The notes beneath the pieces are model-generated. The model was not told the origin of the DNA. It was given only the letters and a program-made list of their open reading frames with translations, and did not search any database. Below are positions 101 to 10,114 of a stretch of DNA of 12,031 nt, piece after piece. Position 1 is the stretch's first letter; each line of letters starts with the position of its first letter. The translations under genes were made by a program, and so were the position numbers. The stretch comes from Promethearchaeota archaeon. Lineage in GTDB: Archaea; Asgardarchaeota; Lokiarchaeia; Sigyniarchaeales; SOKP01. The stretch spans positions 1 through 12,031 of the forward strand of contig JAEOTS010000124.1 of the NCBI GenBank assembly GCA_016839745.1. The letters run 5' to 3'.

Positions 101-847
101 ATGCTCGAAGCTGGAAAAGATGATAATATCGTTGAAAAAAAATTAACCGAATCAGCATATCGCTCCCATAATTTTAATGTCATACCCCCGATCATTGGAA
201 TTATTATCGCAGATCAGTATGGGAACACTATTACGGTCTTTGAGTATGATTCGAATGACGTAGATAAATATGAATCTATTAAATCTTACCTATCAGGGGA
301 TCAAAAAAACTTTTTAGAAATAGACCTGGTTTCCATGTATTTAAGCTCGTTTAAAATCTTTGCCGGGCAAGCTAACATAAAAAATCTCTCTCACCTTGAA
401 ATCTATGGTTCGAATATTAAAGCTCAAATCTATTTTTTGCTTGAGAAATTTATGGTAATCATCTTTTTAAACTCTAACACGGATTTAAATTCAAAAGATA
501 GGGCTCAGGTTATAAAATATTGCGAAGATAAGCTTAATAAGTACGAATTTGAATATAGAAACTTTAATGAGACTGGTTCTAGAGAAACATTATCGATATT
601 GGAACAAAAGGGTAAAAAATGGTTAAAAAAATTCAATGTCAGATACATCCAAACTTACAAAAATATTTACTTAAGGAAACACGAAACTACTGAGGAATTA
701 ATGAATAAATTAGGATTGATAATTCAGAGTGAGATAAACGAATACCTAAACCATGTTCCTGAAGAGATAATTAATAACTTCTCTAAGGACCTCAAGAACA
801 AAATTCAAGATAAACTTTTTGAAATCAATCTAAATAAGCCAGAATAG
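101..847 (+). CDS. Longin/roadblock-like domain protein with C-terminal helical extension
   Basis: 248-aa ORF. IIGIIIADQYGNTI (beta hairpin), DLVSMYLSSFKIFAGQ (helix resembling the LxSxFLSAxxxFAxE helix of Asgard longins), three strands (LSHLEIYG, IKAQIYF, FMVIIFL) and then helices match the longin beta-beta-alpha-beta-beta-beta-alpha order. Confidence 0.6.
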   Translation: MLEAGKDDNIVEKKLTESAYRSHNFNVIPPIIGIIIADQYGNTITVFEYDSNDVDKYESIKSYLSGDQKNFLEIDLVSMYLSSFKIFAGQANIKNLSHLEIYGSNIKAQIYFLLEKFMVIIFLNSNTDLNSKDRAQVIKYCEDKLNKYEFEYRNFNETGSRETLSILEQKGKKWLKKFNVRYIQTYKNIYLRKHETTEELMNKLGLIIQSEINEYLNHVPEEIINNFSKDLKNKIQDKLFEINLNKPE

Positions 848-879: not shown

Positions 880-1719
880 TTATTCTTGAAATTTTACTAA
901 AACTGTAGTAGCAATAACATCAAGTGTTTCTTGAAAGCGCTCGTCTTCTATATTTCCTATCTCAAAATATAAGGCTCCTATTTCTTTAGTGAGAGATAAA
1001 ATTTCTTTATAAGGTATAACCGTATTATTTCCCATAGCTATAAGTGCTATTGGTATGGAAATCTCCTTCCGAAATCTTCCTTTAGTTTTAAATTTTAATC
1101 CAGTGACTTCCTTAAGTTCATTATAATATCTTTTAATCATATCAAAAGATTCACGATTCTCTTTGTTAAATACTAGTATTGCCGCTGTTGCACCCCTATA
1201 AAATTGGGGTCTTAAAAAGGCAAATCGTTTCTGACGTGTAACATCCCAGATTTGAAGCCTTGTTAAGGTTTTATCGTAATTCTCAGTTAATTTAGTTAAC
1301 AAATTAACACCGATTATATCTCTCTCTGGAGCCATTTGAGGCTTATTAAAAACACTTGGAAGATAATCAGATTGTTCTTCCGTTAGACCAAGAATTATTA
1401 TTTTTAGCTGGTAATCATACTTTATTCCCCATTCTCTAAAACTAATTAAGAATTTTTCATACCTTTGGATTTTTTTCCGTAAATCGTATAATTGGCTGCG
1501 TTCTTTAGTTGAAAGTGGAGTCTCTCCAATAATCCGGCGTATAACTACTTCTACTTGCCCTGGACTAATTGTCTTTTCATATAACTCACTTATTTGAAAG
1601 GAAACTTCTTTTATATTAAACTCTTTAGATATTTTCTCTGTCGGAAACTGAATTTTCTTCAAAAACTTCTTTAAATCATCTATTTGTTTTTCGCTAAGAA
1701 AAATATTTTTAGAATTCAT
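880..1719 (-). CDS. Rab-like small GTPase-fold protein with degenerate nucleotide-binding motifs and ~100-aa N-terminal extension
   Basis: YDYQLKIIILG, IGVNL, RLQIWD, QKRF, FYRGATAAILVF and RESF follow the Rab consensus, but G1-G5 are all substituted. Start moved from 1746 to the ATG at 1719 because GGAGGT (1730-1725) lies 5 nt upstream of it. Confidence 0.8.
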   Translation of the reverse strand: MNSKNIFLSEKQIDDLKKFLKKIQFPTEKISKEFNIKEVSFQISELYEKTISPGQVEVVIRRIIGETPLSTKERSQLYDLRKKIQRYEKFLISFREWGIKYDYQLKIIILGLTEEQSDYLPSVFNKPQMAPERDIIGVNLLTKLTENYDKTLTRLQIWDVTRQKRFAFLRPQFYRGATAAILVFNKENRESFDMIKRYYNELKEVTGLKFKTKGRFRKEISIPIALIAMGNNTVIPYKEILSLTKEIGALYFEIGNIEDERFQETLDVIATTVLVKFQE

Positions 1720-1724
1720 TTTCA

Positions 1725-1730
1725 ACCTCC
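1725..1730 (-). promoter_or_regulatory. Shine-Dalgarno site
   Basis: GGAGGT-TGAAA-ATG on the minus strand. Confidence 0.65.
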
Positions 1731-1754
1731 TTTTTTCGTCCATCATTATTATTG

Positions 1755-1777
1755 ACGTCCAATATAGGAATGGACGT
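1755..1777. promoter_or_regulatory. Inverted repeat, operator candidate
   Basis: ACGTCCA-N9-TGGACGT, perfect 7-bp arms, relatively GC-rich within an AT-rich intergenic region. Confidence 0.5.
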
Positions 1778-1782
1778 TTTGG

Positions 1783-1790
1783 TATTTAAA
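1783..1790 (-). promoter_or_regulatory. Putative TATA box for the Rab-like gene
   Basis: TTTAAATA on the minus strand, preceded by A-rich AGCAAACA (BRE-like), directly upstream of the inverted repeat. Confidence 0.5.
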
Positions 1791-1840
1791 TGTTTGCTAA
1801 AAATTACAAAGTAAAAGAAAGAAAAATAATAATTAATATT

Positions 1841-2299
1841 CTATTTAAGGGGAAAAAGTATTTCTGTTTGAAGTTCTTCAGGAGATACCACGGAAGGGTC
1901 GTTTAAATACAATTCATAAGCAATACCCGTTGGTTCATATCCTTGATCCTCAATATACTTGGCAAGTGTTTCATAGGCAGGAGCCACCCCACTATATGGT
2001 CCAATATAAAGACAAGATGCATACTTTCCTCTAGGGATTTCACTTGCTTTAATTTCGTCTTTACTAGATATCTTTTTAGCTACAGGAATCCCAATCTCTA
2101 TATCTAAATTTTGCATGTCCATATTGTAATAAGCAACAAATGGAGCACCAACCATTTGTTCATTTAATTGACCGAGATACTGCATAATCACTCCGTAGTT
2201 CTTACCTAAAACTTCAGGTAGATTCTGAACAGAACTTGTAGTTCTTATTGAGAGTGTATTTTGAGCATCTCGCTCAATTATCTCACATTTATAACTCAT
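1841..2299 (-). CDS. Standalone GyrI-like small-molecule-binding domain protein
   Basis: 152 aa with GAPFVAYY, DIEIGIPV, IPRGKYASCLYIGPY, AYELYLNDP and ELQTEILFPL, typical of the GyrI-like/AraC effector-binding family. No HTH. Confidence 0.9.
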   Translation of the reverse strand: MSYKCEIIERDAQNTLSIRTTSSVQNLPEVLGKNYGVIMQYLGQLNEQMVGAPFVAYYNMDMQNLDIEIGIPVAKKISSKDEIKASEIPRGKYASCLYIGPYSGVAPAYETLAKYIEDQGYEPTGIAYELYLNDPSVVSPEELQTEILFPLK

Positions 2300-3789: not shown

Positions 3790-4167
3790 ATGTATCAAAT
3801 TGAAAAAATTAACGATACTAGTTTTTATATAAAAGCAACTGGTACTTTTCCTCCACCGGTAGCAGAAAGATTTATAAAAGAATTTGAGGAGTTAACTAAA
3901 GATATTCACGATAAGTTAAGTATAATCGTCGACATTAAAGACGCTATTCTTTTGAGTATTGATTCAGTGGATATTATCCTTGAACTCTTGAAGAATAATA
4001 ATGAAAGGCTTTTTAGATCTGCTTTCATAATCGCTAAAAATCCCCCTCTAAGCGAAGAATTTAAATATCTCCTAGATCGTGCTCAATCTCCTAAACGAAA
4101 AATTGTATCCGACCTTGAGGAAGCGAAAGAATGGATAGGGATTGAAAAAATCGTGTTTAAGCAATAA
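3790..4167 (+). CDS. STAS/SEC14 (SpoIIAA-like) domain protein
   Basis: 125 aa with FYIKATG, IIVDIKDA, RSAFII and the terminal IVSDLEEAKEWI (F/V-x-x-x-EEA-xx-WL signature). Confidence 0.7.
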   Translation: MYQIEKINDTSFYIKATGTFPPPVAERFIKEFEELTKDIHDKLSIIVDIKDAILLSIDSVDIILELLKNNNERLFRSAFIIAKNPPLSEEFKYLLDRAQSPKRKIVSDLEEAKEWIGIEKIVFKQ

Positions 4168-4192
4168 ATTTGAAATATATTTTACTCCTGGA

Positions 4193-4996
4193 TTAAAAGT
4201 TAACACCTAACCTTTTTTTACACAATTCAACAGCTTTAGGATTATTATCTACCCCAATCCATTTTCTATTTAACCTCTCCGCAGCGGATATCGTTGTTCC
4301 AGACCCGCAGAAGAAATCTGCAACAATATCTCCCTCGTTTGATGATGCTAAAACTATTCTTTTTAATAATTTTTCTGGTTTTTCAGTAGGGTATCCGTGA
4401 TATTCTTTTGATCTCGTAATCGTTTGATATGAAAAGATATCGTTCCAGACATCGCCAACTAATGTCCCCGGGCTTTCATCTAAATATTGTTTCCCTCTTC
4501 TTCGTTTTCTGTAAAGGCGTCCATCTTCGTCTTTATATCTGAACATTGTTTTAATATAATCTTCTCGATAAGGTAGATATTGCTTATTAAATGTGAAATT
4601 TTCCGATTTTGTGTAATACAATATTGTATCATGCTGGCGCACCCAACTTTTTACTTGACTTTTAAAACCCGAGACGCTCCCTACATTCCATATGATTTCC
4701 TTTCGAAAATTGTTTCTCCCAAAAATTTCGTCACATAAAGGCTTTAAATCGAATATGGCACTAGCATCACAATGTAAGTAAAAACTACCAGTTTTCTTAA
4801 GAACCCGATGCATTTCTTTAATCCTTAGTTTCATAAAATCTAAATATTCTGTTAATGAATTCCATAAATCAGAAAATTCTTTATAATCGACACCGCTGTA
4901 GAAGGGTGGATCAATATATATAAGATCGATTATTTCTGATTCCAACTTCCTCATAAATTCTAGGTTCTCTGCGAGATAGACCGTATTTAATTTCAT
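4193..4996 (-). CDS. Site-specific DNA methyltransferase (N6-adenine/N4-cytosine, beta-class order), orphan
   Basis: Catalytic IYIDPPF near the N-terminus, MHRVLKKTGSFYLH, YPTEKPEKLLKRI, and SAM-binding VADFFCGSGTT near the C-terminus. Confidence 0.95.
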   Translation of the reverse strand: MKLNTVYLAENLEFMRKLESEIIDLIYIDPPFYSGVDYKEFSDLWNSLTEYLDFMKLRIKEMHRVLKKTGSFYLHCDASAIFDLKPLCDEIFGRNNFRKEIIWNVGSVSGFKSQVKSWVRQHDTILYYTKSENFTFNKQYLPYREDYIKTMFRYKDEDGRLYRKRRRGKQYLDESPGTLVGDVWNDIFSYQTITRSKEYHGYPTEKPEKLLKRIVLASSNEGDIVADFFCGSGTTISAAERLNRKWIGVDNNPKAVELCKKRLGVNF

Positions 4997-5013
4997 GTGA
5001 GAATTATATATGA

Positions 5014-5418
5014 ATGAACGTTAATGCAATTATGATGAAGAAAGAAAGGTTAAATAAGAATTTCTTGAATGACTTTCAATTTTACGACTTCACAAAAATT
5101 AAAGAGAATAAAATCTTTTTAGTTGGTTCAATTCGGTTTAAAGATTATTTCATTAAAATCGAGTCAATTTTACAAATTATATATAAAAAGCTTGTTGGAA
5201 TTTGTTCTGTCGATGGGTTGTTAAATAAAGATAAGTTTAATGAAGAAGAATGGGACAAATTGCAAGAGATAGCTATACAAAAATTAAATGATCAAGACGC
5301 AATTTTAGTCCTTGATGTTGATAACTATATTGGGGAGCAATCAAAAGAGGAAATCGAATATTTCAGCTCACACCTGCATAAACCAATATATTATTTGTCT
5401 AAACTTAAAATTGGATAA
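5014..5418 (+). CDS. Nucleoside 2-deoxyribosyltransferase-like (DUF4406-related) small protein
   Basis: KIFLVGSIRF ... QKLNDQDAILVLDVDNYIGEQSKEEIEY ... KPIYYL follows the NDT-like flavodoxin-fold pattern with a conserved Glu. True start may be 5032 or 5035 (TATA-like TTATATAT at 5004-5011). Confidence 0.6.
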   Translation: MNVNAIMMKKERLNKNFLNDFQFYDFTKIKENKIFLVGSIRFKDYFIKIESILQIIYKKLVGICSVDGLLNKDKFNEEEWDKLQEIAIQKLNDQDAILVLDVDNYIGEQSKEEIEYFSSHLHKPIYYLSKLKIG

Positions 5419-5580
5419 TTTCAGTAATTTACAATTTACTAAAGTCTATTCAATTCATAAATTAACTCTTAAAAATCAATAATTTGGTAAAGTCGTAATA
5501 TATTAAAGGTTAAAATAGATTTTAATCATAATTAAATAAATTGGAAACTTTAACGACCACAGTCACGGGTTAAAACTAAA

Positions 5581-6561
5581 ATGGAATTGTTCCAAGTGTT
5601 TTGGGACGATCAAAAGAAACTTTTTTTAGAATTCGAAAAAAATGAGGAAGAGCAAGTTCTATTTCTCCCTGAGACGATAAACAGGTTAAATATCCAATTT
5701 GAAATTTCAAAGATAGTCAAGCAAGACATTTACTACAAGCAGACTCCATCATTAGTTTCCATTAAGAAAATTTATCATTCAACTGAATATTTAGGTTGTT
5801 CTATAGAATTAGATGAGATTCACGGGTTTTCTGATATTCAGATTAAAATATTAAGGTTGACGATTTACTTATACTCTGGTCAGAGAATTGAGTATACCTT
5901 TTCGGAGAAAATTAATGTATCTGATATTTGGGTAAACGATGATTGCTACGCAGGTTTCCAATTCGTCGATTTAAACTCACCTAAAAATCAGAGAAAGAAA
6001 GTAACTCGAGAGAGAGTAGTTCAAGCAACAAAAACTGATTTTAATCAAAAGAAAGAAGAGAAAACCGTTATTTATGAGAAGAGGAGTATTGAAAGCATTC
6101 CAACGGACCAGTCTGTAATATCAATGATGAATGAGAGTAATAAAACTTTAAAAAATATTGAGAAGCATTTAGCAAGCCTTGCATTAACCTTACAGAACAT
6201 GCCTGCTAATCCAATATCTTACGGTCCACCCTCTGGTGTCCCTCAGAGAATTACTGGACCTGGTATCGAAAGAATTAAAGGACCAGACGTACAATCGCTA
6301 ATACAAGGGCGGGGATCTTCGGCCAAACTATTAGTAATAAAGGAAATGAAAACAATTTTCAGAGAAACAACAGAGAAAAATAGTGGTTTCAGTATTAAGG
6401 ATATCCTAAAACCAATGGATGAGAAAGAACTTCAATCCATTATATTAAGCGAAGAGGAGCTTGTTAAAAAGGAAGAAGAATCAATTAATAATCAAATTAA
6501 ACGATTTAAAAAACAACAAGAAGAAAAAATCAAGTTAGAGCAGTTAAAAGAACCCGAATAA
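5581..6561 (+). CDS. Hypothetical protein (globular N-domain, coiled coil, Pro/Gly-rich segment, charged helical C-terminus)
   Basis: 326-aa ORF filling the space between neighbours and followed by T-rich tracts. No family recognised. Confidence 0.8.
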   Translation: MELFQVFWDDQKKLFLEFEKNEEEQVLFLPETINRLNIQFEISKIVKQDIYYKQTPSLVSIKKIYHSTEYLGCSIELDEIHGFSDIQIKILRLTIYLYSGQRIEYTFSEKINVSDIWVNDDCYAGFQFVDLNSPKNQRKKVTRERVVQATKTDFNQKKEEKTVIYEKRSIESIPTDQSVISMMNESNKTLKNIEKHLASLALTLQNMPANPISYGPPSGVPQRITGPGIERIKGPDVQSLIQGRGSSAKLLVIKEMKTIFRETTEKNSGFSIKDILKPMDEKELQSIILSEEELVKKEEESINNQIKRFKKQQEEKIKLEQLKEPE

Positions 6562-6676
6562 TCTTTTTAACTTTTAAACTTTAATTTCTATTAACCCTAA
6601 TCATTGTTAGTTTTATTATAAATCTTTAATTAGCTTTAACTATTAAGTTATAAATGAGGACACAAAACTCGTTAGA

Positions 6677-7465
6677 GTTGAGAATAATATTTTATTAAAT
6701 TACTTTATTGGGACAGCTGGAAGTGGTAAAAGTTCTTTAACAGGTTTATTTAAGGATTATGTTATAAATCGAGATCCAGAAATCTCAGCAATTACACTAA
6801 ACTTGGATCCTGGTGTTAAAATAATGCCATATAATCCAGATATAGATATTAGGGATTTTATTGTTCTTGAAGAAGTAATGACTGAATATGGATTGGGTCC
6901 AAACGGAGCAATGATCTTAGCATCTGATTTAATGGTTAATTTTTTGGACGATCTCAAAGATGAAATTGACGAATATAACCCAGATTGGGTATTTGTAGAC
7001 ACTGCTGGACAACTAGAGTTATTTGCATTTAGAGAAACGGGACCATTGATAGCAAGTACATTAGGTTTTGGATCTATCCAACGGGCTGTATCCTTCCTTT
7101 TTGATTCGAATTTTGTACTAAGACCAAATGGTTTTATATCAACACTATTACTAGCTGCCTCTGTGCAATTTAGGTTTAGAAATATTTCACAAATTAATGT
7201 ATTATCCAAAGTAGATCTGTTAAGCGAAGATCAAATTGAAATGATAATTAATTGGAGTCAAGATTTTAAAGCATTAGAGGATTCTACTAATGAGAGAGAA
7301 AGTGGACTGATAAGAGAGCTATCTATGCTAATTTCAGATGTATTTAGTCAATTAGGATCCACTTCTGAATTAATACCTTGTTCAATAAAAGAAGAAAAAG
7401 GATTAGATCTGCTTTTCGGCTATTTACAGCGTATATTTGACTCTGAAAAATCAAAATTCATTTAA
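6677..7465 (+). CDS. GPN-loop GTPase (ATP_bind_1 family); start uncertain
   Basis: Frame is open from 6647. P-loop GTAGSGKS at 6710-6733 lies upstream of the ORF-track TTG at 6803, followed by NLDPG, YGLGPNGA (GPN), DTAGQLE and LSKVD. No in-frame ATG/GTG/TTG precedes the P-loop, so 6677 (GTT) is a provisional start. Confidence 0.92.
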   Translation, partial: VENNILLNYFIGTAGSGKSSLTGLFKDYVINRDPEISAITLNLDPGVKIMPYNPDIDIRDFIVLEEVMTEYGLGPNGAMILASDLMVNFLDDLKDEIDEYNPDWVFVDTAGQLELFAFRETGPLIASTLGFGSIQRAVSFLFDSNFVLRPNGFISTLLLAASVQFRFRNISQINVLSKVDLLSEDQIEMIINWSQDFKALEDSTNERESGLIRELSMLISDVFSQLGSTSELIPCSIKEEKGLDLLFGYLQRIFDSEKSKFI

Positions 7466-8740: not shown

Positions 8741-10114
8741 ATGCCCAAATATAATATCGCATTTGATGTAGCACACAAACCTAGAGGCAAAATCGACGAG
8801 AATCTCACAGAACTACGAGATTTCTTAAATTCAAACGACTTTCTTTGTTATAACTTCTTGGAAACTCCAATTACTCAAAATTCATTGAAAGCGTTTGATA
8901 TCTTAGTATTTGTCTGTCCAGATTTTGCTAGAATTAGTACCATGGAAATTAACGAAATTAATAATTGGGTTAGACAAGATGGAGGTGGATTACTGCTTTT
9001 ATCTCATGCAGGGGGAGATAAAGGAAGAAATAGCAATTTGAGTGAGCTTAGTCAAATTTTTGGCATCGTTTTTGAAAACGATCAAGTCTTAGATGAAACC
9101 TATAATCTAGGTATGGAAAATATGCCTATACTTACAGCATTCATACCACCACATCCAATTACAAATAGTGTAAGTTCGATATGTTATAGATCTGGTTGCT
9201 CACTTAGTGTATTAGGAAATTCGATTTCAATCGTTTCATCAAATGAGACTTCTGAACCGTTCTCATCTGCATTGGTTTGTGTTTCTGAGCCTGATAATGG
9301 TAGAATTTGTGCTATAGGAAGCTATGAAATATTTAGAGACAGAGTAGGTGGTGGATTTAGCAATGATGAACATCCAAATTTTGCGTTTAACATATTTTCG
9401 TGGTTAATTTCAGACTATAGAATGGAACTACACTCGAGTGGTGCAATTCCGGAGATTATTCCTCAAGAGGAAATACGTGTTCAACAATCATCAGATTATT
9501 CTTCATCTCTGACTCAATCTGGCTTAGAAGATAAACAAAAAATAGATATTAGCTTTTCTATGAACATAACAAGCAATAGCGAGTTAGTAGAATTGCTTAA
9601 AATATTTCAAAATCAAATTGTCACTATAAAAACAACAATTGATAAACTAATTAAAACGGCTATATCATCTGATAAAGATATTACTGAAGCGAAGAAACTG
9701 CAAAGAAAATCTAGTAAATCTTCACAAGAGCAGATTAAAAAATCAATTAATAATGGATTTGATGAATTATTAGCCCCACCAGAAGAATTATCTGATTTGC
9801 CCCCGAAACCCGATAGTTTAAAGGCGAAAGACAGCGAGAATCTTATTGGATTACCAAAACTCGATGCAGCAAATAAATTAAAACCCGTACCTAAACTGAA
9901 ATCTAGTAAGAAACCTAAAAAGAAAGATTTAATTGATCAAAAGAACGCATTAAAAAGTAAACTTGATTCGGTTAAAAATTTGATTGACTTTATAGAAAAA
10001 AAATACGCTTCCAAGCAAATGGATAAGAAATCTTATGAGAAACGTATTAGCCAATTGAAGATTGATTTGAAAACAACACAAAACAAAATTGATGAAATCG
10101 AAAAACAATTATAA
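8741..10114 (+). CDS. GIFT (GldG/IFT52, DUF4350-like) domain protein with coiled coils, Pro/Lys-rich linker and C-terminal helical hairpin
   Basis: IAFDVAH, PITQNSLKAFDILVFVCP, EINEINNWVRQDGGGLLLL, NLSELSQIFGIVFENDQV, HPIT, GRICAIGS..IF and FAFNIFSWL match the GIFT pattern over about 225 aa. No signal peptide or TM helix. Confidence 0.8.
   Translation: MPKYNIAFDVAHKPRGKIDENLTELRDFLNSNDFLCYNFLETPITQNSLKAFDILVFVCPDFARISTMEINEINNWVRQDGGGLLLLSHAGGDKGRNSNLSELSQIFGIVFENDQVLDETYNLGMENMPILTAFIPPHPITNSVSSICYRSGCSLSVLGNSISIVSSNETSEPFSSALVCVSEPDNGRICAIGSYEIFRDRVGGGFSNDEHPNFAFNIFSWLISDYRMELHSSGAIPEIIPQEEIRVQQSSDYSSSLTQSGLEDKQKIDISFSMNITSNSELVELLKIFQNQIVTIKTTIDKLIKTAISSDKDITEAKKLQRKSSKSSQEQIKKSINNGFDELLAPPEELSDLPPKPDSLKAKDSENLIGLPKLDAANKLKPVPKLKSSKKPKKKDLIDQKNALKSKLDSVKNLIDFIEKKYASKQMDKKSYEKRISQLKIDLKTTQNKIDEIEKQL

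Follow-up and report, generated by a model that had tools for sequence, protein, structure and literature searches.

The window, the whole stretch of DNA analysed, is a complete 12,031-bp contig of a 3.53-Mb genome (32% GC) of a Loki-type Asgard archaeon belonging to the Promethearchaeota. On its minus strand an open reading frame runs from 880 to 1746, and within it lies a gene for a Rab-like protein preceded by palindromic DNA. The conserved start is the ATG at 1717-1719 (MNSKN...), as the MNSK-type start is shared by orthologues, giving a protein of 279 aa that matches the called protein P0002. The features of the locus, all on the minus strand, are as follows.

1783-1797: promoter, with a BRE-like GCAAACA (1791-1797) and a TATA box, TTTAAATA (1783-1790).
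1737-1777: operator-like element starting 7 nt after the TATA box and reading ACGTCCAT (1770-1777), N8, TGGACGTCAAT (1751-1761), N7, ATGGACG (1737-1743); it can be read as two abutting inverted repeats or as three ACGT-centred boxes 19 bp apart.
1726-1730: Shine-Dalgarno-like GGAGG, 6 nt before the ATG.
880-1719: coding sequence, 279 aa plus stop (TAA at 880-882).
1426-1719: N-terminal domain (residues 1-98), predicted as strand, H1 (10-22), strand, H2 (36-46), H3 (53-63) and a long basic H4 (71-97); a new domain and candidate DNA-binding module.
1429-1560: H3-turn-H4 unit (residues 54-97), the most conserved stretch of the protein (ISPGQ...G..L..KERSQLYDLRKKI.RYEKFL).
883-1419: Rab-like pseudo-G domain (residues 101-279).
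1366-1389: former G1/P-loop, GLTEEQSD (residues 111-118), in which the Lys and Ser/Thr are gone and two Glu have been introduced.
1189-1314: retained Rab-type interswitch and switch II surface (IGVNL, RLQIW, RFAFLR, FYRGA), with most of the invariant residues of the G domain.
1231-1245: former G3, DVTRQ, with Gly replaced by Arg.
1051-1104: family-specific basic insertion of 18 aa between helix 3 and strand 5 (TGLKFKTKGRFRKEISIP, net charge +5), modelled as a beta-hairpin.
1021-1038: former G4 region, AMGNNT in place of GNKxD.
952-966: former G5, FEIGN in place of E(T/S)SAK.
851-874: T10 (874-865) and T6 (856-851) tracts directly after the stop codon; oligo-T tracts act as terminators in archaea, and these are read as a termination signal.

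The C-terminal domain is clearly related to Rab proteins. Pfam Ras (PF00071) matches residues 145-282 with E 8e-14 (52 bits against a cut-off of 21.6), but only over profile positions 32-160, so that the P-loop part is not recognised. The best sequence matches among solved structures are Rab11, Rab5 and Ypt (E 4e-12), and a Foldseek search with the AlphaFold model (pLDDT 78) returned Rab27a, Ypt1, Rab3, Rab11 and Rab5 (E 1e-9 to 3e-10; target-normalised TM-score up to 0.76). However, the HMMER alignment to Rab11 and a MAFFT alignment with the 67 other PF00071 matches in the genome showed that all five G motifs are replaced. G1 (GxxxxGK[ST]) reads GLTEEQSD, the G2 switch I Thr is Ile (RDIIGV), G3 (DxxG) is DVTR, G4 (NKxD) is replaced by AMGNNT with a deletion, and G5 (SAK) is EIGN. 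Among the 68 Ras-family matches, this is the only one with all five motifs gone. In contrast, YDYQLK and the RabF1-5 equivalents IGVNL, RLQIW, RFAFLR, FYRGA and LVFNKE are retained, although RabF3 and RabF5 match only in part. The protein ends in VLVKFQE, without a C-terminal prenylation Cys, a motif that Asgard Rabs in general lack (PMC10933270). The first-pass annotation, which described loss of all five G motifs with retention of Rab family motifs in an intact frame with expression signals, was therefore correct in every detail.

The gene is not decaying. A search of 5.8 billion proteins gave 87 homologues at 41 to 100% identity, all of the same length and build; those with a source name come from Lokiarchaeota, Promethearchaeota or Hermodarchaeota MAGs, and one more distant member is from Hodarchaeales. 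The frame is intact in about 90 homologues and the motif losses are shared by the whole family, in which the former P-loop has its own conserved pattern, GL..(E/D)Q(S/T). The G3 and G4 positions vary freely (at G3, DVTSQ, DISKK and NVSGN, while one orthologue has DVAGQ). In a tree with 43 canonical paralogues, all 15 pseudo-G domains form one clade (SH-aLRT 100), which points to a single, old loss. Pairwise dN/dS among 11 orthologues is 0.18 to 0.49 overall and similar in both domains. The annotation had named intact G motifs in close orthologues as grounds for rejecting its view, and orthologues do not have them. The basic insertion is present in all pseudo-G domains and absent from canonical paralogues, and within it K209 is invariant.

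The N-terminal domain is specific to this module. Residues 1-98 are predicted to fold confidently on their own (pLDDT 89.9) and are basic (+6 overall, +4 for H4 alone). A full HMMER search with this domain against 1.8 billion representative proteins found only 22 proteins, and in every hit whose domains were mapped it lies directly before a degenerate Ras domain. No Pfam family was matched, and a Pfam search with all 17 members of its alignment returned only noise; the Atlas gave no usable hit. Foldseek against the PDB gave no row with E below 2, the weak rows including homeodomains, Myb, TFIIB and LuxR at chance level. VIA structure comparison gave a best Z of 4.6, and residues 48-98 superposed on two HTH domains with non-significant scores (Z 3.4 to 3.5, rmsd 1.8 to 2.4 over 51 residues). 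A PADLOC search returned only a weak REase_II match to residues 8-104 (E 0.0021, 15 bits), which was treated as chance.

Almost every gene with this domain has the same promoter: BRE/TATA, 7 nt, then GTCCAT-N8-TGGACGTC(C/A)AT-N7-ATGGACG. This layout, at the same distance from BRE/TATA, was found in all 11 orthologue loci, in paralogues of about 320 aa (37 to 44% identity) that lie in unrelated genomic contexts, in at least three fused forms (see below) and in 53 further metagenome loci wherever upstream DNA is available. The distance from BRE/TATA to the palindromes is fixed in more than 60 promoters of the family, and the anchored consensus over 21 promoters is TaCAAA.A TTTAAATA tgAAAA.GTCCATT.Tta.aaTGGACGTCaAt.ataa.aatgGACGtc. 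A few N-terminally extended fused forms (loci L108, L115 and L119) show no site in the upstream DNA available.

The element is also exclusive to these genes in the genomes searched. The composite site occurs once in the genome, at this promoter, and relaxed scans for the inverted repeat or the core box, made in search of a regulon, returned only chance-level single sites. Across 42 genomes of the genus, the pattern TCCAT-N7-9-TGGACGTC had 15 exact matches in 13 genomes, all within about 80 nt upstream of a gene encoding the N-terminal domain, whereas a reversed control pattern gave scattered hits. The nine searched genomes of the genus that lack the gene (85 to 100% complete) had no match. A site of a general transcription factor would not behave like this. 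Neither is an AbrB-type repressor encoded nearby: the only two AbrB/MazE matches (PF04014) in the genome are on other contigs, although action in trans is not excluded.

Half-site variants (GTCCAT, GTCAAT and GCCCAT) change on both arms and track the paralogue. Some lineages have GTCAAT/TTGAC boxes and one subfamily has ATGGGCGCCCAT, while in one locus (L033) two tandem paralogues each carry their own box type. Residue 75, at the start of helix 4 (KERSQLYDLRKK), is Ser in all but two of the GGAC-box promoters and Thr or Asn with TGAC or GGGC boxes. On a tree this gives only five independent pairs, with the box changing in the same direction in 4.3 of them on average and in the opposite direction in 0.1; as five pairs cannot reach significance (sign test, P about 0.125), the covariation is suggestive only.

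The N-terminal domain was found in 29 of 301 sampled genomes of the phylum (18 of 27 in the same genus, 22 of 68 in the family and a few in two other families), with one or two copies per genome. The gene is therefore lineage-restricted and dispensable.

In rare relatives the module is followed in the same polypeptide by one or two canonical Rab-like domains, and one of these forms also has the N-terminal domains of CDC48 in front. Examples are the proteins P0098, P0102 and P0103, plus further metagenome forms of 525 to 698 aa. These canonical domains form a clade (SH-aLRT 99) with three stand-alone GTPases of this genome, at C58:1057, C170:5350 and C10:1937 (contig and position). The C10 gene sits just upstream of a CDC48_N-AAA gene, and in two metagenome loci a GTPase whose C-terminus reads like this clade lies directly upstream of a fused form. 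The fused pseudo-G domains belong to the subfamily of about 320 aa and not to that of the gene studied here, so any transfer of a partnership to this gene is indirect. Complex prediction of the pseudo-G domain (residues 96-279) with the GTPase at C58:1057 scored 0.24 and 0.18, under the 0.32 mark, which is not evidence either way.

The neighbouring gene at 101-847 was considered as a roadblock/longin partner. Pfam found nothing, even at E 10, hhalign of its alignment against 14 roadblock paralogues of this genome gave a probability of 0.5%, and the Atlas gave only a 0.84 lead to a Roadblock/Fuz_longin cluster. Its adjacency is part of a generally conserved gene order and is lost in distant loci, and it was not used as evidence of partnership.

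The best explanation, which we consider somewhat more likely than not, is that the gene encodes a pseudo-Rab fused to a new DNA-binding module that represses its own promoter. In this view the C-terminal part would be a Rab-fold domain that no longer binds or hydrolyses GTP (a class-i-type pseudoGTPase), while the H3-turn-H4 unit of the N-terminal domain would read DNA. The protein may bind as a dimer, a dimer of dimers or three phased dimers to the tandem palindromes, since palindromes imply a dimer and two abutting palindromes imply a dimer of dimers or three phased dimers. Archaeal transcription normally starts about 22 to 27 nt after the TATA box; the palindromes would therefore cover the expected start, inferred here from this typical geometry, and a bound protein would block RNA polymerase recruitment. 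The dead Rab domain would provide oligomerization and/or a nucleotide-independent docking surface, made up of the conserved interswitch and switch II face plus the basic hairpin insertion, through which a partner modulates DNA binding; that partner may be a canonical Rab-like GTPase of one specific clade. What the analysis establishes is the loss of the G motifs, the conservation of the family and the exclusive link between the N-terminal domain and the promoter element, whereas DNA binding, repression, oligomeric state, the absence of nucleotide binding and the identity of the partner are inferences. The N-terminal domain matches no known DNA-binding fold or family, and as the genome has no second strong site, the only visible target is the gene itself, leaving the physiological output unexplained. 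One RNA-library contig (window 1642-1856, about 98.6% identity) crosses the TATA box, but it shows neither a start nor a strand and may be read-through from the upstream gene or carried-over DNA.

The interpretation in the first-pass annotation, a nucleotide-free Rab mimic (scaffold, decoy or GEF sink) fused to an unknown helical domain of about 100 aa, was only partly supported. A conserved pseudoGTPase is supported, but the N-terminal part is not just a helical appendage, as its presence goes together with one palindromic promoter element, which points to DNA binding and self-regulation and not to a free scaffold, decoy or GEF sink. A protein acting only through protein-protein contacts, with its promoter palindromes bound by a different factor, remains possible though unlikely. 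The Rab-type interswitch and switch II surface is the most conserved part of the G domain, the module is fused to canonical Rab-like domains and to a CDC48 N-domain in rare relatives, and the N-terminal domain has no recognizable DNA-binding fold. However, a general factor would be expected to have sites elsewhere, while the site was found only at genes encoding the N-terminal domain and box variants follow the paralogue, even in tandem.

It is less likely still that the repeats act in RNA, as hairpins in the 5' leader bound by the N-terminal domain or another factor to control translation or mRNA stability. Compensatory changes on both arms fit RNA stems as well as dimer DNA sites, the second repeat lies in the expected leader and the RNA-library contig spans the whole region. 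However, the first half-site, only 7 nt after the TATA box, lies upstream of where archaeal transcription normally starts, so that the first inverted repeat could not be fully transcribed from this promoter, and the fixed distance from BRE/TATA is as expected for a DNA operator. About equally doubtful is that the G domain still binds a nucleotide or another ligand in a non-canonical way. The former P-loop has a new conserved motif, one orthologue has DVAGQ at G3 and some prokaryotic small GTPases with deviant G4/G5 motifs remain active (PMC4316618), but the P-loop Lys and Ser/Thr, the switch I Thr, the NKxD Asp and SAK are all absent at once, two acidic residues sit where the phosphates would lie, and G3 and G4 vary freely within the family. 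Although redundant copies are plausible among 68 Ras-family matches, a decaying paralogue is refuted by the intact frames, dN/dS, conserved promoter, Shine-Dalgarno sequence and terminator, and the single old clade reaching Hodarchaeales.

Class-i pseudoGTPase domains of eukaryotes (CENP-M, p190RhoGAP pG1/pG2 and the AAGAB N-terminal domain; PMC5593906, PMC12490416) likewise keep a small-GTPase fold under selection after loss of the nucleotide-binding motifs, as protein-interaction modules. The present domain is archaeal and Rab-like, carries the 18-aa basic insertion and is fused to a new domain that travels with a private promoter element; the papers searched describe no link to DNA or gene regulation for the eukaryotic examples. 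Asgard and eukaryotic Rab/Ypt GTPases (for example, Thor-Rab, PMC10933270; Rab11, Rab5 and Ypt1) give the best sequence and fold matches and share YDY-x-x-K and RabF1-5-like motifs, and other Asgard Rabs also lack the prenylation Cys, but they differ in G1 to G5, the insertion and the extra N-terminal domain. Archaeal repressors such as Pyrococcus Phr and LrpA and Archaeoglobus MDR1 have palindromic sites immediately after BRE/TATA and over the start site at their own promoters, where blocking of RNA polymerase recruitment is the expected mechanism, but use recognized wHTH or Lrp folds and small-molecule or metal sensor domains, whereas here the candidate DNA-binding domain has no assigned fold and the second domain is a dead Rab. 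P-loop NTPase-type regulators (STAND/MalT-LuxR and AAA+ NtrC-type) couple an NTPase-fold domain to a DNA-binding output, but their NTPase domains are active and of other classes. In bacterial group 3 MglA modules with a neighbouring receiver-wHTH protein (PMC4316618), the GTPase and the HTH are separate proteins, whereas here a Ras-superfamily domain without nucleotide motifs is covalently joined to the candidate DNA-binding domain. Literature searches on archaeal or Asgard pseudoGTPases and on Asgard small GTPases with DNA-binding domains found no paper describing an archaeal pseudo-Rab family, this N-terminal domain or its operator.

Asgard archaea carry dozens of Rab/Ras-like genes whose functions are almost all unknown, and which are central to arguments about the origin of eukaryotic trafficking and signalling. 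This family indicates that some of these "GTPases" are probably not molecular switches, one old clade having been rebuilt into what looks like a DNA-binding regulator with a private operator, which would also supply a new DNA-binding domain. It also warns against counting all Ras-family Pfam hits in Asgard genomes as active GTPases. A more speculative possibility, which we regard as unlikely although not excluded, is a transcription factor controlled by a small GTPase: the dead Rab domain would pair, in trans in this genome and in cis in the rare fused forms, with a GTP-loaded canonical Rab-like GTPase of the clade containing the genes at C58:1057, C170:5350 and C10:1937, switching the N-terminal domain on or off its operator. 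Asgard small-GTPase signalling would then feed directly into transcription through a pseudoGTPase adaptor and, if the fused forms reflect a real partnership, this would be the first direct link between small-GTPase signalling and transcription in the closest archaeal relatives of eukaryotes.

A 248-aa gene (101-847, plus strand) lies tail-to-tail with the pseudo-Rab. It has about 260 homologues, and every one that carries a source name is from an Asgard MAG (mostly Promethearchaeota). As these are 55 to 90% identical, the gene is more conserved than the pseudo-Rab. It belongs to no Pfam family. Although its N-terminal half looks roadblock/longin-like on inspection and in an Atlas lead (0.84), hhalign against the genome's own roadblock paralogues gave no support for this.

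The gene at 6647-7465 (plus strand) encodes a GPN-loop GTPase (PF03029). Its P-loop, GTAGSGKS (6710-6733), is encoded in frame but upstream of the first ATG/GTG/TTG (6803), and no canonical start codon lies between the preceding stop (about 6644) and the P-loop. In the relative L031 (a related locus) the called gene likewise begins after the P-loop. This may reflect a non-canonical start codon (ATT or ATA) or, alternatively, a conserved annotation problem.

Elsewhere in the window, 3790-6561 forms a block comprising o125 (3790-4167), an N6/N4 DNA methyltransferase (4193-4996), o134 (5014-5418) and o326 (5581-6561), which is conserved in order and at 67 to 92% identity in the related loci. The three ORFs flanking the methyltransferase have no Pfam family. 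In addition, 8741-10114 (plus strand) encodes a 457-aa protein with an N-terminal IFT52 GIFT domain (PF23355, E 2.6e-12) and a long, low-complexity, Lys-rich C-terminal half.

A 215-nt contig from a sediment metatranscriptome library matched window positions 1642-1856 at about 98.6% identity. It runs from inside the pseudo-Rab gene, across the operator-like element and TATA box, into the 3' end of the upstream GyrI-like gene, and could represent read-through transcription or carried-over DNA. Within the pseudo-Rab protein itself (P0002), a PADLOC search gave a weak match of residues 8-104 to a type II restriction enzyme model (PDLC03420 positions 125-222, E 0.0021, 15 bits), which is probably due to chance.

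Three canonical GTPases in the same genome form a clade with the G domains that are fused to the module elsewhere, and each sits beside a notable gene. At locus L065 (contig C10, 1901-3967) the GTPase lies next to a CDC48_N-CDC48_2-AAA ATPase of 468 aa, that on C170 (L066) next to a 735-aa TPR protein and that on C58 (L067) next to a V4R/DUF2507 protein.

Comparison of two orthologues of the window gene, at loci L038 and L042, showed that the N-domain has a synonymous divergence (dS) of about 1.5, while the G domain of the same gene pair has a dS of about 0.18. This suggests recombination or exchange of domains within the gene. At another related locus, L033, two paralogues of the family (324 aa, 4773-5747, and 278 aa, 6001-6837) lie in tandem. 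Each sits behind its own TATA box and its own box type (ATGGGCGCCCA versus TTGACGTCAAT), as would be expected if duplicated self-regulators had diverged to avoid cross-talk.
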